NCBI GenBank assembly: GCA_021777555.1
Contig: JAJYDK010000016.1
Location: forward strand, 5,178 to 69,177
Length of the DNA stretch: 64,000 bases
DNA from: Pseudomonadota bacterium
Lineage (GTDB): Bacteria > Pseudomonadota > Gammaproteobacteria > Steroidobacterales > Steroidobacteraceae
Direction: 5' to 3'
Shown piece after piece: positions 7,159 to 28,962 of this stretch (position 1 is its first letter; each line of letters starts with the position of its first letter). Under the pieces are notes generated by a model. That model was not told the DNA's origin and made no database searches. It saw only the letters and a program-made list of their open reading frames with translations. A program made the translations under genes and the position numbers.

Positions 7159-8621
7159 GCGTCACGCGGGAGGAGGCGGAGCACGCGCAGGCGGCCCAGG
7201 GCCTCGAGGCCGAGTATCCGCGGCTGGTGTTCCCGCCCGATCACCTCAATCCGCGACCCCAGGGTGTCTACAACCTGGTGGTGATCGGAGCCGGCCCCGC
7301 GGGCCTCGTGACCTCGATCGCCGCAGCCTCGCTCGGCGCCCGCGTGGCGCTCGTCGAGCGCCATGCCATGGGGGGCGATTGTCTCAACGTGGGCTGCGTC
7401 CCCTCCAAGACCCTGCTGGCCGCCGCCGCCGCGGGAGTGTCGTTCGAGGCGGCCATGGCGCGTGTGCGCCAGGTCCGGGCCCGGATCGCCCATCACGACT
7501 CCGTCGAGCGCTACACCCGGGCCGGGGTCGAGGTCTTCCTCGGCGAGGCACGCTTCGAGGATCCCCACATCGTGCGGGTCGGCGATGCCCGCCTGAACAC
7601 GCGCAAAACAGTCATCGCCACCGGCGCGCGCCCGCGGATACCCGCGATCCCGGGGCTCGTGGAACTCGGCCCGTTGACCAATGAGACGGTGTTCGAGCTG
7701 CGTACACGGCCCACGAGACTGGCCATCCTTGGCGCCGGCGCCGTTGGGTGCGAGCTGGCGCAGGCGTTCGCGCGCCTCGGCAGCCGCGTCGAGCTCATCG
7801 AGACGGCCCCTCAGGTGTTGCCCGCGGAGGAAGCCGAGGCCGCGGGACTCGTCGCGGGCGCTCTGCGACGCGATGGCGTGATGGTGCATCTGGACGGTCG
7901 CGTCGTGGCCGCCTCGGTGTCCCCGGAAGGCAAGGTCCTCGCGCTGGAGGATGGCCGCCGGGTGGTGGCCGACGAAGTGTTGATCGCCGCCGGACGGCGA
8001 CGCACCGTCGAGGGCCTGGAGCTCGACCAAGCCGGGGTCAAAGTCGATGCCCGGGGTGCGATCGAGGTCGATGCGCGTCTGCGCACCTCTCATCCGGACA
8101 TCTATGCCGCCGGGGATGTCTGCTCGGCGTATCAGTTCACGCATGCGGCGGATGCGCAGGCGCGCATCGTCATCCGCAACGCCCTGTTTCGGGGCCGCGC
8201 GCGCGCGGACCGGCTCATCGTGCCTCGCTGCATCTACACCAAGCCGGAGCTGGCGCAGGTTGGCGCGACGGCGCGCGAGCTCGAGCAGGCGGGAAGACGA
8301 TTCGAGCGGTATCGTCTGGAGTGGGGGGAGTTGGATCGAGGCGTGACGGATGCGGACGAGGAGGGTTTTGTCGAGGTGCGGGCCGATGCCGGTGGACACC
8401 TCCTCGGGGCGACCCTGGTCGGCCGGGACGCCGCCGAGCAGATCGCCCCGCTCGTGCTCCTCATGACACGAGGCGGGGGGCTCGGCAGCATCGGGTCGCT
8501 GGTGTTGCCGTATCCGACCCGCTCGGAATACCTGCGCCGGCTCGCCGATCAGTACGCCCGCCGGCGTCTGACGCCATGGGTGGCGAGAGCCCTGCGGGCA
8601 TGGCTGCGCCATGCGCGCTGA
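7155..8621 (+). CDS. FAD-dependent pyridine nucleotide-disulfide oxidoreductase (dihydrolipoamide dehydrogenase / mercuric reductase-like)
   Basis: It has the FAD fold GAGPAGL, the redox-active disulfide GGDCLNVGCVPSK, a second Rossmann motif GAGAVGCE, and a C-terminal dimerisation region. Confidence 0.85.
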   Translation: MSVTREEAEHAQAAQGLEAEYPRLVFPPDHLNPRPQGVYNLVVIGAGPAGLVTSIAAASLGARVALVERHAMGGDCLNVGCVPSKTLLAAAAAGVSFEAAMARVRQVRARIAHHDSVERYTRAGVEVFLGEARFEDPHIVRVGDARLNTRKTVIATGARPRIPAIPGLVELGPLTNETVFELRTRPTRLAILGAGAVGCELAQAFARLGSRVELIETAPQVLPAEEAEAAGLVAGALRRDGVMVHLDGRVVAASVSPEGKVLALEDGRRVVADEVLIAAGRRRTVEGLELDQAGVKVDARGAIEVDARLRTSHPDIYAAGDVCSAYQFTHAADAQARIVIRNALFRGRARADRLIVPRCIYTKPELAQVGATARELEQAGRRFERYRLEWGELDRGVTDADEEGFVEVRADAGGHLLGATLVGRDAAEQIAPLVLLMTRGGGLGSIGSLVLPYPTRSEYLRRLADQYARRRLTPWVARALRAWLRHAR

Positions 8622-19012: not shown

Positions 19013-20169
19013 TGCGTGTCCTTTTCGTATCGGACGTCTACTTCCCCCGGGTCAACGGCGTCTCGACCTCCATACGGACATTCCGGGGCGACCTGGCACG
19101 CCTGGGAGTCGAGACGGTGCTGGTCGCACCGGAGTATCCGGGACAGGCCCCCACGGGCGAGCCTGATGTGATTCGCGTGCCCGGCGGGCGCGTGCCCGGC
19201 GATCCCGAAGACCGGCGGATGCGCTGGCGGCATCTGTATCAATCGCTGCAGAGCCTGCCCGCCGACGAATTCGACCTGGTGCACATTCATACGCCGTTCA
19301 TCGCGCACTACGCCGCGGTGAGATACGCGAGGCCGCGGCGCATCCCCTGCATCGCCACCTATCACACGTTCTTCGAGGAATACCTGCACCACTACGTGCC
19401 CGCGCTGCCGAGACGGATCGGCCGGGGACTGGCGCGCACGTTCACCCGATCGCAGTGCGCCGACGTGCGGGCGTTGGTGGCGCCCTCCGAGCCACTGCGG
19501 CAGGTGTTGCAGGACTACGGAGTCGACACGCCGGTGCACGTCATCCCGACCGGGTTGCCGGCGGACCGGTTCACGCCCGGAGATGCCCGCCGATTCCGGG
19601 CGCTCGCGGCGTTACCGCCCGAGCGTCCCCTGGTCACCTACGTCGGGCGGGTGGCGCACGAGAAGAACATCGACTTCCTGGTGCGCTCGTTCGTGCGGGT
19701 GCGACAAGCGGTTCCCGAGGCCCTGCTGGTGATCGCCGGCGAAGGGCCCGCCCGCGAGGGGCTGCGCCAGCAGGTCGAGGCGCTCGGACTCGGGCGCGAC
19801 GTGCATTTCGCCGGCTACCTGGACCGAGACACCGCGCTGTTGGATTGCTATGCCGCGGCCTCGGTGTTCGTGTTCGCATCACGCACCGAGACGCAAGGCC
19901 TGGTGCTGCTCGAGGCGATGGCGCAGGGCACACCCGTCGTGTCCACCGCAGAGCTCGGCACCCGCTCCATCCTCGCGCCGGCCTGCGGCGCAATCATTGC
20001 CGAGGAGCGCGAGGAGTCCTTCGCCGCGAGCGTCATCCGCGTGCTGACCGATGAGAGCCTGCGCCGCACCCTCTCGGAGCAGGGCCGGACCTACGCCCGT
20101 GGCTGGTCATCCTCGGCCATGGCCGCCCGCCTCGGGGAGTTGTATCACTCCATCCGGCGCAAGGGGTGA
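19012..20169 (+). CDS. Glycosyltransferase family 4 (GT-B, GT1 clan)
   Basis: The N-terminus is MRVLFVSDVYFPRVNGVSTSIRTF and the EX7E region is ETQGLVLLEAMAQG. The ATG at 19012 overlaps the PAP2 stop (TGATG). The longer track ORF from 18697 is an artefact. Confidence 0.9.
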   Translation: MRVLFVSDVYFPRVNGVSTSIRTFRGDLARLGVETVLVAPEYPGQAPTGEPDVIRVPGGRVPGDPEDRRMRWRHLYQSLQSLPADEFDLVHIHTPFIAHYAAVRYARPRRIPCIATYHTFFEEYLHHYVPALPRRIGRGLARTFTRSQCADVRALVAPSEPLRQVLQDYGVDTPVHVIPTGLPADRFTPGDARRFRALAALPPERPLVTYVGRVAHEKNIDFLVRSFVRVRQAVPEALLVIAGEGPAREGLRQQVEALGLGRDVHFAGYLDRDTALLDCYAAASVFVFASRTETQGLVLLEAMAQGTPVVSTAELGTRSILAPACGAIIAEEREESFAASVIRVLTDESLRRTLSEQGRTYARGWSSSAMAARLGELYHSIRRKG

Positions 20170-20240
20170 GAGCGGGGCGAGTGAGGCCCGGAGCAAGAAG
20201 ACGCGAGGATACTGAGCTTCACGCCACCTTGTGTTCGCGC

Positions 20241-21131
20241 ATGGATGATTGTATGTTGTCGCCCAAACAGGGTGGATATAACGACAACATCGTGCCCAGG
20301 GGGACGCTCGAGGTCATCGAGTTCGATCCACGCCAGGAAGGCCCGGCGGTGCTTGAGTGCGCTCCTGAAGCATCGTGTCTCGTTCCAGACCTTCTCAGCC
20401 ATGTCAGGCTGAGATACCGCGCCGTCACCAGCGCCATCGTGGCGTTCGTGGTCCTCGCACTGCATGCGCTGGTGCTCGCCCCGCTGCTGCTCCGCGGGTC
20501 ATCCGGCATTCCAGCCCCCAGGTACGGAGCGCTCACCCTCATCCAGGCGACACTGATCGACGATCAGTCGGCCTTTGCGATCGCTCCGCCCGCGCTCTCC
20601 CAGCCGGACTTGCGGCCGATCCACGTCAATCTTCCGGACAGTCCGAGCCGCAATGCCGATCCAGGCCTCGCCGCCCTCTACGGCCGTTATCTCGGCCAGA
20701 TCCATGCCCGGATCGACCGGGCCTGGCTGAGGCCTCGCAGCGCCATCGGAGCGCCGATGTTTCGCTGCCAGGTGGAAGTCTGGCAGCGCCGAGACGGGAC
20801 AGTGCAAACCCTCACGCTGCAGCACTGCAATGGCACGACGCGCTGGCAGCAGTCCCTCGTCCAGGGGATCGACGACGCCTCTCCGCTGCCGGCGCCCCCC
20901 GATCCCGCGGTGTTCGCCCGCCGCGTCGTCCTGCACTTCCAAGCCGTGGCGTATGCGCCGGGCCAGCGCGCTGGAGAGTACGAGCGGGCGCGGCCGACTC
21001 TGGCGGACGACCCGAAAGCCGCCGGGCCTTCACCGATCCTGTCGCTCCGGCAGGCGGTCGGGGCGTCACACCGAGGCGTGATCCAGCTTCGCATCACCGG
21101 TTCCCAGATCGAGATCGAGCCGCAACGTTAG
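20241..21131 (+). CDS. Membrane-anchored protein with a TolA/TonB C-terminal-like domain
   Basis: It has a single TM helix (AIVAFVVLALHALVLAPLLL). The C-terminal region matches the TonB_C/TolA pattern (Y...I...I...W..P, FRCQVEVWQRRDGTVQTLTLQHCNG, ASPLPAPPD). The start is uncertain, at 20166, 20241 or 20253. Confidence 0.5.
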   Translation: MDDCMLSPKQGGYNDNIVPRGTLEVIEFDPRQEGPAVLECAPEASCLVPDLLSHVRLRYRAVTSAIVAFVVLALHALVLAPLLLRGSSGIPAPRYGALTLIQATLIDDQSAFAIAPPALSQPDLRPIHVNLPDSPSRNADPGLAALYGRYLGQIHARIDRAWLRPRSAIGAPMFRCQVEVWQRRDGTVQTLTLQHCNGTTRWQQSLVQGIDDASPLPAPPDPAVFARRVVLHFQAVAYAPGQRAGEYERARPTLADDPKAAGPSPILSLRQAVGASHRGVIQLRITGSQIEIEPQR

Positions 21132-21178
21132 ATCGCGTGAATCGAGAACATTCACCATTGACGGATCCAGGGTGGACT

Positions 21179-24100
21179 ATGAAGAAGAACACGGTCAAGG
21201 CATGGCTTCTTGCACTAGCTCTTCCGGGCGCATGGTCTCCCGCCCACGCCAACGTCGGGCGCACGCCGGCAACGTTCCACGTCGACCGATACGGTGCGGC
21301 CACTTACACGGTTCCCATCTGGGCTCCCCGCGGACCCAATGGACTCGAACCTCAGATCGCGCTCACCTATGACAGCCAGGGCGGCAGCGGCTACATGGGG
21401 GTGGGGTGGTCGGTGTCCGGCATCAGCTCGATCTACCGGTGCAATCGGACCACCGCGCAGGATGGCACGCCCGCCCCGGTCGCGCTCACCTCGAGCGACG
21501 CGTTCTGCCTGGACGGCGAGCGGCTGCAACTGACCGGCGGCTCTTACGGCGTGGCGGGCTCCACCTACCAGACCGAAATCGCCACTTTCGAGCAGGTGAC
21601 CGCCTACGGGACGGCGGGCAATGGTCCGGCGTACTTCGTCGTCCAGGCGCCGAACGGAACGCAGTACGAATACGGCAACGGCGGCGGCTCGGAGGTGCTT
21701 GCGAGCGGCACCAGCACCGCCATGCAGTGGTACTTGGATAAGGTCACGGACCGCGCCGGCAATACGATGACCTTTGCGTACACCGACAGCACGGGGTCGG
21801 CCGTACCGAGCACGATCTCCTGGACCCCGACCAGCCATGGCGCGACCTCCTACGCCTACTCGATGCAGTTCGCCTACGGGACGAACGCCTCGGCAAGCTC
21901 AACATACGGCTATGTGGCGGGCACGACGGTCACGAACACGAATCTCTTGTCCTCGATCACCGTCAATTACCAGGGCGCCACGGTCAAGAAATACGCGCTC
22001 ACCTATCAGAGCTCCACGACATCGGGCCGGGACGAGTTGACCCAGGTGAAGGAATGCGCCGATGCGGCCGAGACCAATTGCCTCTCGCCGACCACCTTTT
22101 CCTACCAGACCTCTTCGGCCGGCGTTGAGACGAGCGCGACCGCTGCGACTGCGAGCGCGCCCGTCAATCTGGTCTGGAACTACGATTTCAACGGGGATGG
22201 CCGTGACGACCTTGCCTACTGCACCGCAGCGCCGAGTCTTACCGTTGAGGTGGCCTTCGCGTCCTCGAGCGGGTACGGCACGCCAATCAATACGGGCATA
22301 CCGTGCGAAACCAGCGGCGTGGATACGGCTCTATTTGGCGACGTGCTCGGAGACCACCGGGACGGCATCCTCGCCGTCCATAGCGGCACCTGGTACGACT
22401 ACCAATGGAACGGCAGCTCCTTTGTCGGTCAATCGACGGGGCTCGCCTTTCAGTCTGCCGTTCAATATGTGCTGGCCGACGTGACCGGCGATGGACGGCC
22501 CGATCTGATCTCACTGAATTACATTGGCTCGAGTTTGCCAACGGGCATGACGATCGACGTGCGGCTCAACACGAGCTCCGGATCCACCGCATCGTTCTCG
22601 TCCACCAATGCGCTGTGGTACAGCCTGTCACTCCCCTCGAACCTCGCAGCCATCTGGGCGAACATTCAAAGCACCTCGGACGGACAAAACCAGAGCCTGG
22701 GGAGCGGCGCTCTGAGGCATCTCGACTTCAATGGAGACGGACGTGATGATCTGGCGTTCGAGTATCAGACCATGATCTGTATATACATAAGAAACGTGTG
22801 CCATGATGAATACCAGGATCACGCGGACGAGCTCATATCGACGGGCAGCGGCTTCTCGACCACTCAGATGGCGACGGCCTCGACAATGACCTTTCCGGGT
22901 GTCGAGTTCCTGAACTTCAACTCTGACGCATGCACGGATTACCTCTATAACAGCATCATCTACGTCTCCGGCTGCAACGGGACGCTGCCGGCCACGGTGA
23001 CGGTGCCCTCCTCGAGTGTGGTCGGCGCCATGGACTGGAATGCGGACGGTCGCACCGACATTCTCGTCAACAACGGCGGCACCATCGGGGTCTACGTGTC
23101 CACTGGAACAGGTCTCACGGGCCTCGTCTCGACCGCCATACCGTATAACGCCAATGACGTGTACTTCGCCTTCGATCCGAACGGAAACGGACTTGATTCT
23201 CTTGGCGCGTCGAATGGCAGTTCCGTTTCGTATTACGCCCACAATGGTGCGGCAGATCTGTTGGCGTCCGTCACCGATGGCTACGGCAATACGATCAAGC
23301 CCACGTATGTCACGCTTGCACAGGGCTCGGGATCGACATATACCCCCGCAAACGATGCGCAGTTTCCTTATGAAAATTACACTGGCTCGCTGTATGTGGT
23401 GAATCAGGTCACTTACAGCGATCCGTCCAACCCTCCGAACGCCACCTATCAGCGGACCCACTATTACAGCGGGGCCTGGATGAACCTTCAGGGCCGGGGC
23501 TTCGCGGGGTTCGAGACCGCCTCCGTCTACGACTCGCGCAATCAGCTCTATACACGGCGCGCCTTCGATCTGACCTTCCCATACACGGGCATGCTGTCCT
23601 CGGAAGCGGTCACGGAGAATTCCGCCGGCGGCCAGGTCGTTTCATCGATCTCGAATACGCTTGCGGACACGACGTTGTCATCGACTTCCGGCCGACAGCG
23701 CTACTTTCTCTATGTCTCGGCATCGGCACGCAAGCAATATGCCGTGGGCGGCTCGGATAATGGCGCGCTCGTCACCAGCACCTCGCGCAGCTATTCGTAC
23801 GACAGCTACGGCAATCCGACCTCGATCTCGAGCACCGTCACGGACGAGGACGGCGGCTCGCCCGACTATGGCGACTCCTGGACCACCTCCGTCACCGATA
23901 CGCCAGACGTCAACGCCGGAACGTGGTGTCTCCGGCTCATCAGCCAGTCAGTGGTCTCCTACTCCGCCTCAAATGGCAGTACACCCGTCTCTCAGACCCG
24001 CGAGTACACCCCGGATACCAGCAACTGTCGCTACACGCAGATCGTGACGGATCCCTCGAGCAGCAGCTATGCGGTGACCGAGACACTGGGCTATGACAGC

Positions 24101-27100
24101 TTCGGGAATATCGATAGTGATACCGTGACGGGCGCCGGTATGGCCGCGCGGACCACGGCCGCGAGCTGGGGTACGACAGGGCAATTTCCGATGTCCGTCA
24201 CGGATCCGACGGGTGCCTCCACGAAGTTCAATTACGACTTTGCGTATGGCCTGGTGAGCAGCGACACCGATCCCAATGGCCTCACCACGACCTGGCAGTA
24301 TAACGATGGCTTTGGCCGTGTGACTCGGGAGACGAGACCGGACGGAACGTACACCACGTGGAGCTACAGTCCGTATTCCGGTTCGGACCCCAAGCCGCGG
24401 ATGGTGGTGACAGAGCAACCGCACGATACGCAGGGCAATGTCATCTCGACCACGTCCGAATACCTCGACAGGACCGATCGACCGTACATCACGGACAAGA
24501 CGTTGCTCGATGGCACTGCCGCCACGGTCATGCAGCGGACGTATGACGCCTTAGGCCGGGTGGTGTCCAGCCAGGAACCCTATGAAGGCAGCACCGTGGG
24601 GGCATTGACGTATTCCTATGACCTCCTGGGCCGCGTGGTCGAGGTGCAGCGCCCCATCAGCGCCACCGACAGCTCACCGGAGACATGGACCTATCAATAC
24701 GACGGCCTCACGGAGGTCATCACGGATCCAAACGGACACACACGCGCGCTGGCCCGCGATCCCGCCGGCTGGCTGCGGCGCAGCACGGACGACCTCGGCT
24801 ACGCGATAGACTTCGGATATGACGCGGCGGGAGACCGGGATCAGGTCACCGACAGTCAGGGCAATACGCTTTGGACGGGGTCGTACGCCTATGGCATCAA
24901 GCCATTCTTGACCGGCGAGACGTCCATGGACAGAGGGGCCTGGGGCTATACGGTGGATGCCCTCGGTGAGCGCACAAACTGGACCGACGCCAAGGGTCAG
25001 CACTTCTCCGAGACTTACGATGCCTTGTCTCGGCCCCTCACTCGGTCGGAGCCGGACTTCTTCACCCAGTGGACCTGGGGCTCGAGCGCGGCGAATCACA
25101 ATGTGGGCAGGCTTGCGAGCGTCTGCACGAATACCGGAACGAACCCCACCGCCTGCTCGAGCACCGGGGGAGAGTCCGAAAGCTGGACCTACGACGGCGA
25201 CGGAAGGCTCTCCCAGCGCGCCATCACGCTCCCGTCAGAGGGCACATTCACCTACACTTGGCAATACAATGCCGCCACAGGATTCCTGCAGAGCCTCACC
25301 TACCCGACCGGGTCGAGCGGCCAGGCGCTCACGCTGCAATATGCCTACGCGTACGGGTACCTGCAGTCGATCACCGACACACTCGACTCGCCGAACATCG
25401 TGGTCTGGAAGGCCGACACCATGAACCCGGCCGGCCAGGTCACCCAGGACACCCTCGGCAATGGGATCATCACGACCCGGGCCTTTGACGCCGTGACGCA
25501 CTTCCTCACTTCGGTGCAATCCGGCGAGGGCGGCGGCACCGGAGTGCAGAACATGAGCTTCCTGTACGATCCGGCCGGCAATGTCACTCAGCGCCAGAAC
25601 AATAGTCTCGGCCTGACCGAGGACTTCTACTACGACGGGGACAACCGGCTGAGCTACTCCACGCTGAACGGCACCCAGAACCTGTCGCTGACGTACGATG
25701 TGATGGGCAATATCACCAATCGGAGCGACGTGGCGAGCAACGGGACGTGGACCTATGATCCCAATCACAAGCACCAGGTGACCGAAGCGGGTAGCACTGC
25801 ATACAAGTACACGTACGATGCGAATGGAAATATGGCTTCGAGGGCGGGCGGCGCCATCAGCTGGACCAGCTATAACTATCCAAGCATCATCAATGATAGT
25901 GCTACTGGGATGACCATTGACCTTTATTATGGCCCGGGTCGCAAGGTGTGGCTGGAAACAACTCAGAGTCCGCCCCAAGGATGGGTCCCGGGGCAGACGA
26001 CCGAGACCTACAGGATTGGCGATCTCATGGACATCGTGTCCAATGGGGGCGGCATTAGCGACCGTGACTACATATTTTCAGGAAGTCAGCCTGTGGCAGT
26101 CGACGCGCGGACGCAAACCAGTAACACCTTCTATTACTTCCAGAGCGATCAACAGGGCAGCATCGCTAGTGTCACGAATGCTTCGGGACAAGTGGCGGTC
26201 AATGAGAGCTTCACGGCCTACGGGGCTCGCAGAAATCCAGCCACGTGGTCCGGCGCACCCTCGAGTACCGATCTCTCTACAATCGCAGGCATAACTCAAC
26301 ACGGCTACACTTTTCAGCGCGTACTCGGCGAGCAGATTGCCCTCAACGATATGGTAGGAAGGGTGGAGGATGCGATCATAGGAAGATTCCTGTCGGCAGA
26401 TCCGACAGTCCCGAATGCGACCGACCCACAGGATTGGAATGACTACAGCTACACGGAGAATAATCCACTGACCTACGTGGATCCGACGGGATTCAAGGAC
26501 AAGAAGAAGGGAATCACTGCGAGCGGCGGCGCAGGTGTTATCGCAGGCGGGGCGGCTGGTAACGGAGGCGCGGGCGGCTCTGGATCATCCAGCACGCCTA
26601 TGAGCGTGCCGGCACTCTCTGAGGTCGATATTTCCGGTTACAGCGGCAACCTTGCGAGCGACATCAGCATGTCTATCCTCGCTGGGTCTGGAAATGGGTA
26701 TGCCATTGACGAAACCAATGGAGGTTTGGCCTATTCTTGGGGTTCGCGAAGTGCCGGAACGCCGCAAAGTAATCCGCCAAAGACAACGTTGCAACCCGTA
26801 ACAGTCACGGCAACGCGGTTGCCAGATTTCGCGCATATCAGTTTCTCATTTCCCTTCGAGAACGAATTCACGGGACCCTTCCTGGGAATAGGGCTTACAT
26901 TCACGATTGACAGATACGGCGATGTGTATGTCTCCGTCAACGGAGTGGCTGGTTTACCGTCAGCAAAAGGCGCGAGCGGCATGGCTGGTTGGATGAATGG
27001 CTCGAGCACGCCATCTCAATCTCAACTGAGCGGAATGCTGTCAAGTTGGGGCGGTGGTGCACAAGTGGGATACGGGGGCCTCGGGTTTGGCTTTTACGGC

Positions 27101-27205
27101 AATAGTTCTGGCACCTCGGAGAGCGGAGGTCTGTCGAGCCCGGGCGCATCAGTGTATGGAGGTTACACATGGGAAGTGGGTTCGGTAAGCTCTTGGCATT
27201 GGTGA
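21179..27205 (+). CDS. Secreted SpvB/TcB-N + FG-GAP/VCBS + RHS (YD-repeat) polymorphic toxin, 2008 aa
   Basis: It has a Sec signal peptide (MKKNTVKAWLLALALPGAWSPAHA) and an SpvB-type N-terminus (TYTVPIWAPRGPNGLEPQIALTYDSQGGSGYMGVGWSVSGISSIYRC). Repeated DFNGDGRDDL / DVTGDGRPDL / DWNADGRTDIL motifs are followed by dozens of YD repeats. The RHS core ends in GRFLSADP...YSYTENNPLTYVDPTGF. The track ORF start at 20375 overlaps the upstream gene and is an artefact. Confidence 0.9.
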   Translation: MKKNTVKAWLLALALPGAWSPAHANVGRTPATFHVDRYGAATYTVPIWAPRGPNGLEPQIALTYDSQGGSGYMGVGWSVSGISSIYRCNRTTAQDGTPAPVALTSSDAFCLDGERLQLTGGSYGVAGSTYQTEIATFEQVTAYGTAGNGPAYFVVQAPNGTQYEYGNGGGSEVLASGTSTAMQWYLDKVTDRAGNTMTFAYTDSTGSAVPSTISWTPTSHGATSYAYSMQFAYGTNASASSTYGYVAGTTVTNTNLLSSITVNYQGATVKKYALTYQSSTTSGRDELTQVKECADAAETNCLSPTTFSYQTSSAGVETSATAATASAPVNLVWNYDFNGDGRDDLAYCTAAPSLTVEVAFASSSGYGTPINTGIPCETSGVDTALFGDVLGDHRDGILAVHSGTWYDYQWNGSSFVGQSTGLAFQSAVQYVLADVTGDGRPDLISLNYIGSSLPTGMTIDVRLNTSSGSTASFSSTNALWYSLSLPSNLAAIWANIQSTSDGQNQSLGSGALRHLDFNGDGRDDLAFEYQTMICIYIRNVCHDEYQDHADELISTGSGFSTTQMATASTMTFPGVEFLNFNSDACTDYLYNSIIYVSGCNGTLPATVTVPSSSVVGAMDWNADGRTDILVNNGGTIGVYVSTGTGLTGLVSTAIPYNANDVYFAFDPNGNGLDSLGASNGSSVSYYAHNGAADLLASVTDGYGNTIKPTYVTLAQGSGSTYTPANDAQFPYENYTGSLYVVNQVTYSDPSNPPNATYQRTHYYSGAWMNLQGRGFAGFETASVYDSRNQLYTRRAFDLTFPYTGMLSSEAVTENSAGGQVVSSISNTLADTTLSSTSGRQRYFLYVSASARKQYAVGGSDNGALVTSTSRSYSYDSYGNPTSISSTVTDEDGGSPDYGDSWTTSVTDTPDVNAGTWCLRLISQSVVSYSASNGSTPVSQTREYTPDTSNCRYTQIVTDPSSSSYAVTETLGYDSFGNIDSDTVTGAGMAARTTAASWGTTGQFPMSVTDPTGASTKFNYDFAYGLVSSDTDPNGLTTTWQYNDGFGRVTRETRPDGTYTTWSYSPYSGSDPKPRMVVTEQPHDTQGNVISTTSEYLDRTDRPYITDKTLLDGTAATVMQRTYDALGRVVSSQEPYEGSTVGALTYSYDLLGRVVEVQRPISATDSSPETWTYQYDGLTEVITDPNGHTRALARDPAGWLRRSTDDLGYAIDFGYDAAGDRDQVTDSQGNTLWTGSYAYGIKPFLTGETSMDRGAWGYTVDALGERTNWTDAKGQHFSETYDALSRPLTRSEPDFFTQWTWGSSAANHNVGRLASVCTNTGTNPTACSSTGGESESWTYDGDGRLSQRAITLPSEGTFTYTWQYNAATGFLQSLTYPTGSSGQALTLQYAYAYGYLQSITDTLDSPNIVVWKADTMNPAGQVTQDTLGNGIITTRAFDAVTHFLTSVQSGEGGGTGVQNMSFLYDPAGNVTQRQNNSLGLTEDFYYDGDNRLSYSTLNGTQNLSLTYDVMGNITNRSDVASNGTWTYDPNHKHQVTEAGSTAYKYTYDANGNMASRAGGAISWTSYNYPSIINDSATGMTIDLYYGPGRKVWLETTQSPPQGWVPGQTTETYRIGDLMDIVSNGGGISDRDYIFSGSQPVAVDARTQTSNTFYYFQSDQQGSIASVTNASGQVAVNESFTAYGARRNPATWSGAPSSTDLSTIAGITQHGYTFQRVLGEQIALNDMVGRVEDAIIGRFLSADPTVPNATDPQDWNDYSYTENNPLTYVDPTGFKDKKKGITASGGAGVIAGGAAGNGGAGGSGSSSTPMSVPALSEVDISGYSGNLASDISMSILAGSGNGYAIDETNGGLAYSWGSRSAGTPQSNPPKTTLQPVTVTATRLPDFAHISFSFPFENEFTGPFLGIGLTFTIDRYGDVYVSVNGVAGLPSAKGASGMAGWMNGSSTPSQSQLSGMLSSWGGGAQVGYGGLGFGFYGNSSGTSESGGLSSPGASVYGGYTWEVGSVSSWHW
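26495..27202 (+). other. Variable C-terminal (toxin) domain of the RHS protein, Gly/Ser-rich, unassigned
   Basis: This 236-aa stretch begins right after the DPTGF core boundary. It has a GxxxGxxxG run (GAGVIAGGAAG), a hydrophobic beta-like core (FAHISFSFPFENEFTGPFLGIGLTFTIDRYGDVYVSVNG), and a Gly/aromatic tail (GGGAQVGYGGLGFGFYG). It has very few charged residues or His. Confidence 0.6.
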
Positions 27206-27221
27206 CACGCACGAGGTCATC

Positions 27222-27473
27222 ATGAGGAAGATAGTCATTGTCGTTGTGCTGTTGGCGTTCTCAGCGATCTCCGCGTATCACGCGATCTGGGCTCGAGAGA
27301 TAAGGGATCGGCAGCTGATTAAATTGGAGCGTTTTCATGAAAAGGATAGCCGCATGTTGCGATTCAGTAGGAAATTGATGGGCGCTTCGTACGTCTTCAG
27401 CTTTCGTTTGATCGGCTCCGTAGGGGCTCTTGTGCTGCTGGTCCTGGCGATTTACGTTGTGATACACGGCTGA
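27222..27473 (+). CDS. Small two-TM membrane protein, candidate cognate immunity protein
   Basis: The 83-aa ORF starts 17 nt after the RHS stop. It has two hydrophobic helices (IVIVVVLLAFSAISAYHAIWA and YVFSFRLIGSVGALVLLVLAIYVVI). Its GC is as low as the toxin tip. Confidence 0.5.
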   Translation: MRKIVIVVVLLAFSAISAYHAIWAREIRDRQLIKLERFHEKDSRMLRFSRKLMGASYVFSFRLIGSVGALVLLVLAIYVVIHG

Positions 27474-27658
27474 CGCATCTCTGATGGATGCGACATGAGG
27501 TGATGAGGAGGAGGCGGGACACCGAAGGGGCCTTCCAGGAGACCTCGGTGGCGGTGTGTGGGGCGCATTGCGATCGACGCCCCCCCCCCGGGGTTGCATG
27601 CAGGATAGGCGCGGAGCGAGTTTTGTAGCCCAATTGGCTACAACGGTCAGCGGTGGCG

Positions 27659-28222
27659 TCAGCACTTCTCGCTGAGATCGGCGGTAAATCCGATAGGTCG
27701 GCGCTTGGGAGCCGGCGGGTTCATGAGCTGGCGGATGGCCGAGAGCATGGCGGCGATCGCCTCATCGTGCGTGGTGAGCTTTTTCTCGATGCGTGCCTCG
27801 AGCTCATCGAGGCGGCGAGCGAGATCCTTGTTCGAGGCGAGGAGCTTGCGGAGCTTCACGAAGGCGCGCACGACGTAGATGCCCATCTCGACGGCCCGTG
27901 GACTGCTGAGGACGTTGGCGACCTGGATGGCGCCATGCTCGGTGAAGGCGTAGGGTCGATAGCGACGCCCGCCGCGACCAGGACTTTTTGAGGTCGCAAT
28001 TTGCGACCTCAAAGGCTCCGCTTCCTCGGCGGTGAGCTGGAACACGAAATCCTCTGGAAACCGCTTGGCGTTGCGCTTGACGGCCTCGTTGAGGCGTCCG
28101 GTGGTGACGCCGTAGATCGCCGCGAGGTCGCGATCGAGGATGACGCGCTGACCGCGCAGGACGAGGATCGAGCGGGAGATGTGCTCGACGGGGAGGAGGG
28201 AGGCCTGGCTGGATCTGGCCAT
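27659..28222 (-). CDS. ORF6N domain-containing protein (KilA-N-related DNA-binding protein)
   Basis: The ORF6N hallmarks are present: RGQRVILDRDLAAIYGVTTGRLNEAVKRN..RFPEDFVFQLT..E...LRSQIATS...GGRRY.PYAFTEHG. A coiled-coil tail follows. Confidence 0.8.
   Translation of the reverse strand: MARSSQASLLPVEHISRSILVLRGQRVILDRDLAAIYGVTTGRLNEAVKRNAKRFPEDFVFQLTAEEAEPLRSQIATSKSPGRGGRRYRPYAFTEHGAIQVANVLSSPRAVEMGIYVVRAFVKLRKLLASNKDLARRLDELEARIEKKLTTHDEAIAAMLSAIRQLMNPPAPKRRPIGFTADLSEKC
27987..28013. repeat. Perfect 13+1+13 palindrome inside the ORF6N coding sequence
   Basis: The sequence is tttgaggtcgcaa-t-ttgcgacctcaaa. It encodes the conserved LRSQIATSK segment on the minus strand. Confidence 0.9.
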
Positions 28223-28245: not shown

Positions 28246-28562
28246 TCAGCGACCGGACTGGCTCAGGATGCCATCGAGCATCTGCATCACGACTTTCTGC
28301 TGAGCCTTCGGCAGGCGCTTCAAGCGCTCGATCTGCTTCTGGAGCAGCGGCGTGGGACCGCGGCGGCCGGCGCCGCCGCTGTGCAATCCCAATAGCTCAT
28401 CGACGCTGACACCGAAAAGCTCGGCGAACACGGGCAGCATCGAGACGGCCGGCCGGGCCCGGGCGACCTCGTAGTTGGCGTACGTCTGCTCTGCGATCTC
28501 GAGGGCATCGGCGCCCCGAACTGATAGGCCATGCGTGAGCCCTCTTACGCGCGGCTGAAGGG
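28246..28562 (-). pseudogene. XRE-family HTH regulator remnant (N-terminus lost, no usable start)
   Basis: The frame reads ..RVRGLTHGLSVRGADALEIAEQTYANYEVARARPAVSMLPVFAELFGVSVDELLG...LLQKQIERLKRLPKAQQKVVMQMLDGIL. I saw no ATG, GTG or TTG upstream of the HTH. The first ATG (28440) lies after helix 3, and the 5' end runs into the stop of the upstream antitoxin gene. Confidence 0.5.
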
Positions 28563-28565
28563 TGA

Positions 28566-28769
28566 TTACAGCCGGTCGTACTCGGCATCGTTCGGGTTGT
28601 TCCAGACGGCTGCGAAGGCGGGCTCGGACACTTGTGCGGCGCTGCGCACGAGATGATGGTCGGATTCCCGGTTTTGCAGGAAGTCGATGAAGTCCTCGAC
28701 CGCGGCGCGCCGCTCTGGCGGGAGGGCTCGCAGCTTCTCGAGCAGGAGCTGTTCAGCCTGTGCACTCAT
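28566..28769 (-). CDS. DUF2281-like type II antitoxin, apparently orphan
   Basis: The 67-aa protein (MSAQAEQLLLEKLRALPPERRAAVEDFIDFLQNRE...) starts at an ATG preceded by GGAG. No PIN or other toxin ORF follows it. Confidence 0.5.
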   Translation of the reverse strand: MSAQAEQLLLEKLRALPPERRAAVEDFIDFLQNRESDHHLVRSAAQVSEPAFAAVWNNPNDAEYDRL

Positions 28770-28962
28770 GGGGAAATCTCCGCCGGCCCTGCTCGGCGGC
28801 GATGAAGGCATCGATGATCGAGAGGCGCTCCTCGACCGGGGTATTGAGCACACGCGCCAGATCACTCGGGAGTGCGACCGGCGCAAGATGCCATCGAGCC
28901 GCAGCGCTCTACGCTAAACTGGCATCGTGATTCCGGTAGCCGGCAGAGGCGGCAGCAGTAGC

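Follow-up and report, generated by a model that had tools for sequence, protein, structure and literature searches.

A Gly-rich barrel at the tip of an RHS protein and its two-helix partner probably represent a new family of membrane-attacking toxins with an antidote

The window, a stretch of 64,000 nucleotides of contig JAJYDK010000016.1 (assembly GCA_021777555.1) from a Pseudomonadota bacterium, contains an RHS polymorphic toxin gene followed by a small open reading frame (ORF). The annotation of this region is provided in Table 1. The RHS ORF extends from 20375 to 27205, and its true start is likely the ATG at 21179, where translation would begin with a signal-peptide-like sequence (MKKNTVKAWLLALALPGAWSPAHA). 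With this start the protein has 2008 aa and, therefore, its tip comprises residues 1773-2008. The protein showed Pfam matches to SpvB, FG-GAP_3, FG-GAP and RHS_repeat, and NCBIfam matches to YD_repeat_2x and Rhs_assc_core (residues 1713-1775); outside the linker described below it is 70-80% identical to its 2049-aa orthologue in locus L004. The core ends in NPLTYVDPTGF, which is presumed, by analogy with the role described for the DPxG[LF]-type motif of Tse5 (PMC9637101), to be the autoproteolytic boundary that frees the tip. A previous sequence-only reading had described a variable RHS toxin tip after this boundary and an 83-aa ORF next to it, and its coordinates, sequence, core end and small ORF were all found as described, with RHS_repeat and the Rhs-associated core ending in DPTGF.

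Table 1. Genes and features identified around the RHS toxin tip (positions in the window).
Feature	Position	Strand	Basis and remarks
TonB_2 C-terminal-domain protein gene	20166..21131	+	Pfam TonB_2, E 7e-8; membrane-anchored; start codon uncertain
RHS polymorphic toxin gene, 2008 aa (likely start)	21179..27205	+	Signal-peptide-like N-terminus, SpvB, FG-GAP propeller, RHS/YD shell, Rhs-associated core, variable tip
Rhs core end, NPLTYVDPTGF (DPxG[LF] motif)	26462..26494	+	Sequence; Rhs_assc_core match stops here
Hypervariable Gly/Ser/Pro-rich linker, ~105 aa	26495..26809	+	Outside homologue alignments; 31% identity to L004
Conserved toxin domain, 131 aa, residues 1878-2008	26810..27202	+	Family alignment, AF2 model, Foldseek, motif counts
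Shine-Dalgarno-like GAGG	27213..27216	+	Sequence reading; 5 nt before the ATG of the small ORF
Candidate immunity gene, 83 aa	27222..27473	+	TM1 ~residues 4-22, basic 40-aa loop, TM2 ~residues 63-81
ORF6N (KilA-N-like) gene, convergent	27659..28222	-	Pfam ORF6N, E 5e-32; PADLOC PDC-S05, E 6e-51

The TonB_2 gene is a conserved neighbour, as it also adjoins the upstream side of the orthologous RHS gene in loci L004-L008 (269-297 aa). The ORF6N gene occupies an equivalent position in L003-L008 and L010; it is thus kept in the close lineage and probably stands outside the toxin system. Among the window ORFs examined there were no T6SS, PAAR, VgrG or TcA genes.

The tip (26495-27202) consists of 236 aa, of which 48 are Gly, 39 Ser, 22 charged (9.3%) and 2 His. 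It had been taken as a single toxin module, yet its homologues align solely with the last 131-146 aa and only the last ~131 are conserved; the tip is a linker plus a conserved domain. The linker is hypervariable: the first ~90 aa of the tip share 31% identity with the orthologous L004 protein, against 70-80% in the flanks, its position is occupied by unrelated sequence in L004, L010 and P0002, and its length across the family ranges from 3 to more than 1000 aa (median 67). Its final 15 aa (QSNPPKTTLQPVTVT, from 26765) are kept in the closest subfamily only. The glycine-zipper run previously proposed as a toxin feature (GAGVIAGGAAG, 26528-26560), with the only strict GxxxGxxxG motif of the tip at tip residue 14, lies inside this linker, and that role is not supported: unrelated sequence takes its place in close homologues, and distant homologues, with linkers that can be as short as 3 aa, lack it.

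At 50% identity, the family to which the conserved domain belongs comprises at least 201 clusters, and in all members the domain forms the extreme C-terminus. The carriers are nearly always Rhs/YD scaffolds; RHS_repeat was matched in 27 of the 76 longer members, and most of the others show Rhs-core ends by eye. The pair was not found behind CdiA or PAAR scaffolds, where the sequence-only reading had suggested looking for it. The family-wide composition of the domain is 16.8% Gly and 8.5% charged residues, and its hallmarks are PD[FY] (D1883; 106/116 members), DRYG (D1911 and R1912; DRxG in 87/116) and a C-terminal Trp (W2008). In the alignment, the two Asp and the Arg (D6, D34 and R35 of the domain) are invariant or near-invariant, and no other polar residue is conserved. 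No Pfam, NCBIfam or PADLOC family and no PDB sequence matched the tip, in agreement with the earlier remark that it bears no recognisable enzymatic motif, and neither the tip nor the 76 + 40 members matched an enzymatic or other family even at E<=10.

AF2 predicted with high confidence (pLDDT 92.9, pTM 0.84) that the domain folds as a compact, soluble-type, Gly-rich eight-stranded beta-barrel in the order b1-b4, helix, b5-b8. In the model, hydrophobic residues face inward to form the core, the Gly/Ser/Thr surface is nearly free of charge, and the strand order places D1883, D1911 and R1912 at one shared end of the barrel, with the PD motif at an N-cap and DRYG at a beta-turn. No hydrophobic helix was found in the tip (Kyte-Doolittle maximum 0.83). 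Given this absence and the soluble appearance of the barrel, membrane insertion would need oligomerisation or refolding. The Foldseek search, also suggested earlier, returned no solved enzyme and gave as its only compact matches VapG and VapD of Rhodococcus equi (probability 0.98 and 0.91; TM 0.51-0.55, rmsd 4-5 A over ~124 columns, E about 0.01-0.1), and these were obtained with both AF2 models.

The small ORF starts at ATG 27222, 16 nt past the stop codon of the toxin (27203-27205). It must be considered a real conserved gene, since it has 14 homologues of 82-88 aa with 65-77% identity. The two TM segments previously ascribed to its product correspond to two 19-aa windows of strong hydrophobicity (Kyte-Doolittle 2.44 and 2.85). 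In 52 of 53 such small proteins the loop contains more K/R than both tails (mean 7.4 vs. about 1 per tail), so that, according to the positive-inside rule, the protein would form an inner-membrane hairpin with its basic loop in the cytoplasm. The first hydrophobic segment could instead be a cleaved signal peptide, in which case this topology would be reversed.

The expectation that the small ORF should accompany the toxin homologues was borne out. A hydrophobic ORF of 45-98 aa starts between -29 and +141 nt from the toxin stop in 42 of the 44 loci examined, which include an orphan cassette and IS-truncated copies; two helices are predicted in all but a few truncated cases of this set, and 53 of 56 small ORFs belong to one family. 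The paired loci span 31-62% GC. The pair persists as an orphan cassette in L003, orphan tips without RHS body still carry the small ORF (L003, L013 and L015), and in L001 and L002 the toxin is IS-truncated and the immunity gene retained. In addition, pairwise identities of toxin and immunity protein are correlated (r = 0.67; 0/2000 Mantel permutations as high), which may be mere genetic linkage, and the immunity protein diverges much faster (mean identity 21% vs. 46%). The small protein thus behaves as a cognate immunity gene product, and we are largely confident that both genes constitute a toxin-immunity pair.

With respect to known systems, the closest match for the probable mode of working is Tse5 (RhsP1), the Rhs pore-former of Pseudomonas aeruginosa, which depolarises cells and has a two-TM immunity protein, Tsi5 (PMC9637101). 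Both tips follow a DPxGL-type motif at which they would be freed from the Rhs shell, both lack an enzymatic signature, and both immunity proteins are predicted to cross the cytoplasmic membrane with two TM segments. However, for Tse5-CT, set apart here by its description and not by sequence, the prediction is a helical fold that includes TM and amphipathic helices, while our tip is predicted to be all-beta; and Tse5 is PAAR-like and delivered by VgrG/T6SS, whereas the protein studied starts with a signal-peptide-like sequence and carries SpvB/FG-GAP at its N-terminus, with no T6SS genes seen nearby. The alpha-helical CDI ionophores (CdiA-CT EC93 type) are also polymorphic pairs with a rapidly diversifying two-helix hairpin CdiI (PMC11630599), but their toxin, which diversifies rapidly too, is a five-helix bundle instead of a barrel, and for CdiI a cytoplasmic location of the termini is predicted, whereas here the positive-inside rule places the loop there. 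Ntox25 (PF15530) CdiA-CT and Tse4 are likewise small, Gly-rich, mostly-beta toxin domains, modelled by AF2 as beta-barrel ionophores that dissipate the membrane potential and have integral membrane immunity proteins (PMC11630599). No relation to Ntox25 was detected in a comparison confined to sequence: none of the 116 members matched its Pfam profile even at E<=10 or contained its defining FGPY motif, and hhalign against the EC93 Ntox25 domain gave 0.3% probability. Moreover, its carrier is CdiA and not Rhs, and the EC93 CdiI is a multi-spanning protein of 162 aa, not a hairpin of ~83 aa.

The Vap proteins form eight-stranded barrels in which a helix lies between b4 and b5; their 'bald' surface is rich in Gly and binds detergent, and their Gly-rich C-terminus ends in a core Trp (PMC4118825). 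The predicted domain shares with VapA, VapB, VapD and VapG the strand number, the position of its single helix, the Gly-rich strands, the very few charges and, at the C-terminus, a Gly-rich strand with a conserved Trp after it. VapA can bind liposomes and make them permeable (PMC10100859), the Vap mechanism itself being unsettled. No Pfam match or sequence relation was detected (hhalign 0.4% probability); the resemblance is at fold level only (TM about 0.5), and homology is unproven. Furthermore, Vap proteins differ in that an actinomycete secretes them or displays them on its surface as stand-alone virulence proteins, with neither immunity gene nor Rhs carrier.

In attention to the above, we give an even chance to the reading that the pair is an interbacterial Rhs toxin-immunity family whose action takes place in the cytoplasmic membrane, and weigh equally for and against the membrane itself being the target. 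Membrane-directed action, as the sequence-only reading had proposed, is the best inference, but not through a helical pore-former, since a beta-barrel with no hydrophobic helix is predicted. In this regard, the conserved D/D/R trio may have a catalytic function, which counts against pure membrane action. The barrel might then be an enzyme or tight binder of a lipid-linked or membrane-embedded small molecule (lipid II, undecaprenyl phosphate or a phospholipid head group), with the trio as active or binding site and the hairpin occluding the toxin at the membrane surface. The near-invariance of the trio and its clustering at one barrel end fit this reading, a membrane-embedded immunity protein would suit a membrane-bound substrate too, and ligand binding has been proposed for avidin-like and Vap-like barrels (PMC4089522). 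We nevertheless consider it unlikely: no conserved His, Cys, Glu, Lys or Ser completes a known catalytic set, no enzymatic toxin family or solved enzyme was matched, an N-cap and a beta-turn are typical structural positions, and the immunity protein leaves hardly anything exposed outside the bilayer.

Equally improbable, in our judgement, is that the barrel blocks a specific inner-membrane protein (a transporter, a respiratory complex or Sec/YidC) and leaves the bilayer undamaged, the immunity protein competing or shielding. Other polymorphic toxins do need such proteins, as CDI ionophores depend on AcrB, SecY, YciB, PuuP and DtpA (PMC11630599) and Bte2 on Rnf (PMC12718326), and a compact, soluble-looking barrel with a wholly membrane-embedded immunity protein is compatible with it. 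However, since the hosts cover such a GC range, only a very widely conserved protein could serve as target; the Gly-rich surface and the extreme scarcity of charge suggest contact with lipids and not a specific protein interface, and no candidate target is encoded nearby. Less probable still is a Tc-like (TcB/TcC-type) toxin against eukaryotes, whose Vap-like tip would, in the manner of VapA, disturb the endolysosomal membranes of the host and whose small ORF would only guard the producer membrane. SpvB, FG-GAP, RHS and signal peptide occur together in TcB-TcC fusions, one relative matches TcdB_toxin_midN, and the nearest fold is that of virulence proteins acting on macrophage vacuoles; but Tc toxins need no immunity gene because their tip stays encapsulated, the linked, co-diversifying immunity gene, the orphan cassettes and the retained orphan immunity genes are hallmarks of interbacterial polymorphic toxins, no TcA-like gene lies among the window ORFs examined, and the carriers are environmental MAGs. 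Finally, an export, release or chaperone accessory (holin-like or adaptor) is very improbable for the 83-aa protein, which is small and has two TM segments like class II holins, but whose ORF tracks the toxin domain and not the scaffold, outlasts toxin truncation (L001) and diverges at the fast rate typical of immunity proteins, and whose long basic loop and near-absent tails are unlike those of holins.

Under the preferred reading of a membrane-directed toxin, the RHS shell would enclose the tip until autoproteolysis at the DPTGF boundary frees it, the Gly/Ser linker being a disposable segment before the barrel. Once delivered into a neighbouring Gram-negative cell, the barrel would associate with or enter the cytoplasmic membrane and dissipate its potential or permeability barrier, possibly after forming oligomers or refolding in part. 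In the inner membrane, the helical hairpin would block the toxin inside the bilayer or at its surface, the only places where they could meet because just 2-4 residues would be exposed outside. The toxin domain and the small TM protein are two families previously without annotation and, given that this barrel domain almost always precedes a tiny two-helix membrane protein, they probably represent a new membrane-attacking toxin family with its antidote.

The RHS gene has its likeliest start at an ATG that opens the product as MKKNTVKAWLLALALPGAWSPAHA.., giving a protein of 2008 aa, with which the residue numbering of the earlier sequence-only reading agrees. The coordinates of this gene and of the other features are provided in the table. 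RHS_repeat was matched in seven stretches (Pfam, E 5.5e-26) and YD_repeat_2x was matched as well (NCBIfam), and the Rhs-associated core (TIGR03696, NCBIfam) ended in ..NPLTYVDPTGF, directly followed by the tip. In addition, Pfam placed an SpvB N-terminal domain, an FG-GAP_3/FG-GAP propeller and the RHS shell in a single chain, as in TcB/TcC-type carriers. By every feature open to test (repeats, core with DPxG[LF], downstream gene), the protein is an Rhs polymorphic toxin. The G+C content stepped down from 67% in the window to 61% in the RHS body, 56.5% in the tip and 51% in the small ORF that follows it. Promoter and terminator scans gave counts not above those of shuffled sequence. The gene directly upstream of the RHS gene, here and in all five orthologous metagenome loci (L004-L008), encodes a membrane-anchored protein that carries TonB_2 as its C-terminal domain, and this conserved neighbour suggests an accessory role in the export or delivery of the signal-peptide-bearing SpvB/FG-GAP-type RHS protein.

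Coordinates of the features in the window and in the related loci from MAGs and metagenomes (L numbers)
Feature	Sequence	Position (strand)	Detail
TonB_2 protein	window	20166-21131 (+)	
RHS ORF	window	20375-27205 (+)	likeliest start ATG 21179
Rhs-associated core	window	end at 26494	residues 1713-1775
Tip	window	26495-27202	residues 1773-2008
Linker	window	26495-26809	
Toxin domain	window	26810-27202	residues 1878-2008
RHS stop codon	window	27203-27205	
GAGG	window	27213-27216	
83-aa ORF	window	27222-27473 (+)	ATG at 27222
C10-GGGG tract	window	27580-27593	intergenic
ORF6N gene	window	27659-28222 (-)	convergent
Small ORF	window	28246-28440 (-)	
Small ORF	window	28566-28886 (-)	
Candidate island	window	~20.1-28.9 kb	
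IS3-interrupted cassette	L001	9466-10252	
IS3-interrupted cassette	L002	1162-1948	
Orphan cassette	L003	~7700-8431	
RHS tip and immunity gene	L010	2626-4888	
Degraded second copy	L012	6702-8371	same MAG as L010
Second partner family	L027	439-645	
Second partner family	L038	3246-3398	
Second partner family	L044	3457-3675	

The tip comprises 236 aa, with 48 Gly, 39 Ser, 22 charged residues and 2 His. The sequence-only reading had described it correctly in its coordinates, its composition and the two-TM ORF that follows. It had also seen no recognisable toxin motif, and HMM searches of the tip in Pfam, NCBIfam and PADLOC gave 0 matches. Homologues covered only the last 131-146 aa. Compared with the RHS protein of locus L004 (2049 aa), the body showed 70-80% identity and the last 140 aa ~80%, with only 31% over residues 1746-1844; the linker position held unrelated sequence in L004, in L010 and in the homologous protein P0002. 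Family-wide, the DPxG motif and the domain lay between 3 and more than 1000 aa apart (median 67). Gly runs were abundant in the linker of every close relative, and this hypervariable segment may act within the shell as a flexible tether or an unfolding leader. The glycine zipper GAGVIAGGAAG, to which the same reading had drawn attention, sits in this linker and is no family feature. The sole strict GxxxGxxxG of the tip starts at tip residue 14, in the non-conserved linker, and such spacing occurred somewhere in the domain in 37 of 116 sequences, at no fixed position, as expected at 17% Gly. A glycine-zipper class of membrane toxin was rejected, given that no positionally conserved GxxxGxxxG helix was found.

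In a profile search, 1.84 billion representative proteins yielded 201 matches at E<=1e-3 (34 at E<=1e-10), and the family counts at least 201 clusters at 50% identity. The match was always at the extreme C-terminus, in proteins of 67 to 2270 aa. Among the 76 longer members, RHS_repeat was found in 27 (Pfam), others matched DUF6531, DUF6443, TEN_YD-shell, SpvB, FG-GAP or TcdB_toxin_midN, and none matched a toxin-domain family. Where the strict DPxG was lacking, the end of an Rhs core was visible by eye in most members, and one had LysM instead. A one-genome-per-species GTDB scan with toxin-domain alignment A2 gave only 4 loci, all in proteobacterial MAGs, and a tblastn search of plasmids with the main-clade domain gave no match. 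In A5, a trimmed alignment of 40 sequences reaching down to ~27% identity, P5, D6, P68 and G107 were invariant and G26, D34, R35, G37, G48, G92 and P111 nearly so. PD[FY] was present in 106 and DRxG in 87 of the 116 domain sequences, and the family composition was 16.8% Gly and 8.5% charged residues. No Pfam or NCBIfam model was touched consistently by the domain, even at E<=10, and searches of Pfam, NCBIfam, PADLOC and PDB sequences found nothing across the tip, the trimmed domain, the 76 and 40 family members and 10 immunity proteins.

The 83-aa ORF begins shortly after the RHS stop codon, behind a GAGG. Its product has two strongly hydrophobic segments (Kyte-Doolittle 2.44 and 2.85, against a tip maximum of 0.83) and 14 homologues of 82-88 aa with 65-77% identity. 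In the close lineage (L004-L008 and L010) the small ORF follows the toxin domain by 7-16 nt. To cover distant members, a metagenome scan with a main-clade alignment gave 40 loci, and two further proteins were looked up. The pairing proposed from the sequence alone was borne out beside the homologues, the small ORF being present in 42 of 44 loci, orphan cassettes included; there, a hydrophobic ORF of 45-98 aa begins -29 to +141 nt from the toxin stop, with two predicted helices, save for a few that are truncated or edge-cut. The loci that did not conform were L053, whose toxin is frameshifted, and L028. By phmmer and iterative HMM, 53 of 56 partner proteins joined into one family, and the other three formed a second two-TM family. 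The latter, found in L027, L038 and L044, is shorter (68-72 aa), carries ..WWI(V/M)(L/F)P(E/Q)SVI.. and is unlinked to the main family; it may represent a second immunity solution for the same toxin fold. Partner proteins gave 0 Pfam matches above cut-off.

Pairwise identities of toxins and partners were correlated (r = 0.67, reached in 0 of 2000 Mantel permutations), a correlation that genetic linkage alone could yield. The partner diverges much faster than the toxin, with a mean identity of 21% versus 46%. Its loop of ~39 aa contains a mean of 7.4 K/R, versus ~1 in each tail of 3-4 residues, a pattern seen in 52 of 53 proteins. Following the positive-inside rule, the loop would be cytoplasmic and almost nothing would be exposed outside, unless TM1 is cleaved off as a signal peptide. 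A holin-like role of the 83-aa ORF was rejected for this architecture and for its tracking of the toxin. By the gene logic described for polymorphic toxins (Zhang et al. 2012, PMC3482391), the RHS tip and the small ORF are very probably a toxin/immunity pair. As far as sequence can tell, the toxin domain represents a genuine and conserved family that has so far gone without annotation, with a dedicated family of putative membrane immunity proteins, carried here on a Tc-like RHS scaffold.

AlphaFold2 modelling of the domain with 6 sequences gave pLDDT 70 and was repeated with 22 sequences, reaching pLDDT 92.9 and pTM 0.84. The latter model consists of four strands (7-15, 25-34, 38-49, 54-62), a helix (70-77) and four further strands (80-88, 91-98, 101-109, 112-125), all-beta except for that single 8-residue helix. 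Residue types alternate along the strands, L25, I27, L29, F31 and I33 with G26, G28, T30 and T32 for example, which would place a hydrophobic core behind a Gly/Ser/Thr exterior. In two Foldseek runs against the PDB, the only low-rmsd neighbours were VapB, VapG and VapD of R. equi (probability 0.91-0.99, TM 0.49-0.55, rmsd 4-5 A; E 0.07-0.1 for the model from 22 sequences), with a Brucella COG5400 barrel as a weaker low-rmsd match; neither run gave a match at E<=1e-3. GFP-like and RNA-polymerase matches were discarded as noise (rmsd 12-19 A). Against the viral BFVD, the one compact match lacked a useful E-value (E 0.5, probability 0.69).

VapD forms an eight-stranded barrel, its one helix lying between b4 and b5; its glycine clusters form a 'bald' detergent-binding surface, and its Gly-rich C-terminus has a core Trp as the last residue (PMC4118825). 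The secondary-structure order of the domain fits the eight strands and the b4-b5 helix, a comparison of order and not of strand topology (b4/b8 transposition). The window domain ends in Trp (..GASVYGGYTWEVGSVSSWHW); a Trp is terminal in 57 of the 116 domain sequences and falls within the last 4 residues in 68. The likeness to Vap is suggestive. However, hhalign of A5 against an alignment of VapA, VapB, VapD and VapG gave a probability of 0.4%, and we therefore claim a resemblance of fold and not homology; with no Pfam match either, membership of the Vap family is not demonstrable. A literature search for Rhs or polymorphic toxins linked with Vap-like domains found nothing.

Among known toxins, Tse5 is an Rhs protein with a tip that depolarises cells and an immunity protein, Tsi5, in which two TM segments are predicted (PMC9637101). 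However, Tse5-CT is a pore-former predicted to be helical, whereas the window tip has no hydrophobic or amphipathic TM helix in the 19-aa Kyte-Doolittle profile; given the all-beta model, it would belong to a different structure class. Ntox25 and Tse4 are ionophores for which a beta-barrel is predicted; among helical ionophores, the CdiI partners form two-helix hairpins (PMC11630599). Membership of Ntox25 (PF15530) was ruled out on sequence and profile: the model gave no match at E<=10 in the tip, 76 family proteins or 40 trimmed domains (the same library detects Ntox25 in EC93 CdiA at 4.5e-23), the Ntox25 motif FGPY (Zhang et al. 2012, PMC3482391) occurred in 0 of 116 domain sequences, and hhalign against the EC93 domain gave a probability of 0.3%. 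Moreover, the EC93 CdiI differs in being a multi-spanning protein of 162 aa. Ntox40 (DRxxG) and Ntox23, two all-beta toxins in the same survey (PMC3482391), were rejected with 0 Pfam matches, the family having DRxG and only 2 of 116 sequences DRxxG.

We infer a membrane site of action because the partner is essentially intramembrane, the toxin is extremely charge-poor and has no catalytic signature, the nearest fold is that of membrane-active proteins, and precedents exist in Tse5, Ntox25, Tse4 and CdiI. That the domain permeabilises or depolarises the membrane is, by these analogies, about evenly poised; against it we count that the predicted model resembles a soluble barrel with no visible means to breach the bilayer. 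An enzyme or a binder that uses D1883, D1911 and R1912 (D6, D34 and R35 of the domain) on a lipid-linked substrate would draw on conserved residues and is unlikely in a domain so lacking in catalytic signature. A blocker of one specific membrane protein, which would also act where the partner resides, seems to us equally unlikely. A Tc-like toxin directed at eukaryotes, for which the carrier architecture speaks, is very improbable: no TcA translocator partner was found among the neighbours and the scanned window ORFs longer than 330 aa, nor any T6SS or TcA gene near the RHS gene among the window ORFs examined.

In L001 and L002 the 5' portion of the toxin domain has given way to an IS3-family element (rve/HTH_Tnp_1 genes), with ~80 codons at the end of the toxin and an intact immunity gene kept; this orphan immunity gene adjoins HigB/HTH toxin-antitoxin genes and a Tn3 fragment. 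L003 carries an orphan cassette of toxin domain and immunity gene, with no RHS body, within an apparent integrative element (primase, phage integrase, IS21 and IS66 transposases). In L012, a degraded second copy, frameshifts affect both the toxin domain and the immunity gene, as in a decaying duplicate. Just downstream of the immunity gene of the window lies an ORF6N (KilA-N-like) gene, found in the same place in L003-L008 and L010, which matches the PADLOC candidate defence family PDC-S05 (E 6e-51). Between it and an alpha/beta hydrolase gene there are two small ORFs, one with a weak match to the antitoxin-like DUF2281 (E 1e-3). These small ORFs and the low G+C content suggest a small acquired island at the RHS locus, flanked by a GT4 glycosyltransferase gene and the hydrolase gene. 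A C10 homopolymer followed by GGGG, after the immunity gene, may be prone to slippage or sequencing error.

Rhs and other polymorphic toxins are a main source of new antibacterial activities. To our knowledge, few tips target membranes, and those that do are helical except for Ntox25 and Tse4. The domain described here is widespread (201 or more clusters at 50% identity; hosts of 31% to 62% G+C) and unnamed in the libraries searched. Its fold is confidently predicted, and a family of putative membrane immunity proteins of ~80 aa is dedicated to it. The kind of system is already known, and the interest lies mainly in the fold, a Vap-like beta-barrel, and in an immunity that would act within the membrane. 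If the barrel depolarises cells, it would be a new structural solution for membrane attack and would offer a small, easily assayed toxin-antidote pair. The mode of action of the R. equi Vap proteins has long been debated and still is. VapA binds and permeabilises liposomes, and it neutralises the pH of the vacuole (PMC10100859). The fold-level link to these proteins is a lead that can be tested in either direction. It is conceivable, and in our view rather doubtful, that the domain is an ancient relative of Vap, both being Gly-rich 'bald' beta-barrels that would enter bilayers and conduct protons or ions, the Rhs form as an antibacterial with an intramembrane antidote. If so, a beta-barrel class of Rhs ionophores would be defined, and the Vap mechanism would gain a genetically tractable bacterial model, with toxicity in E. 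coli and the immunity protein as a specific inhibitor.
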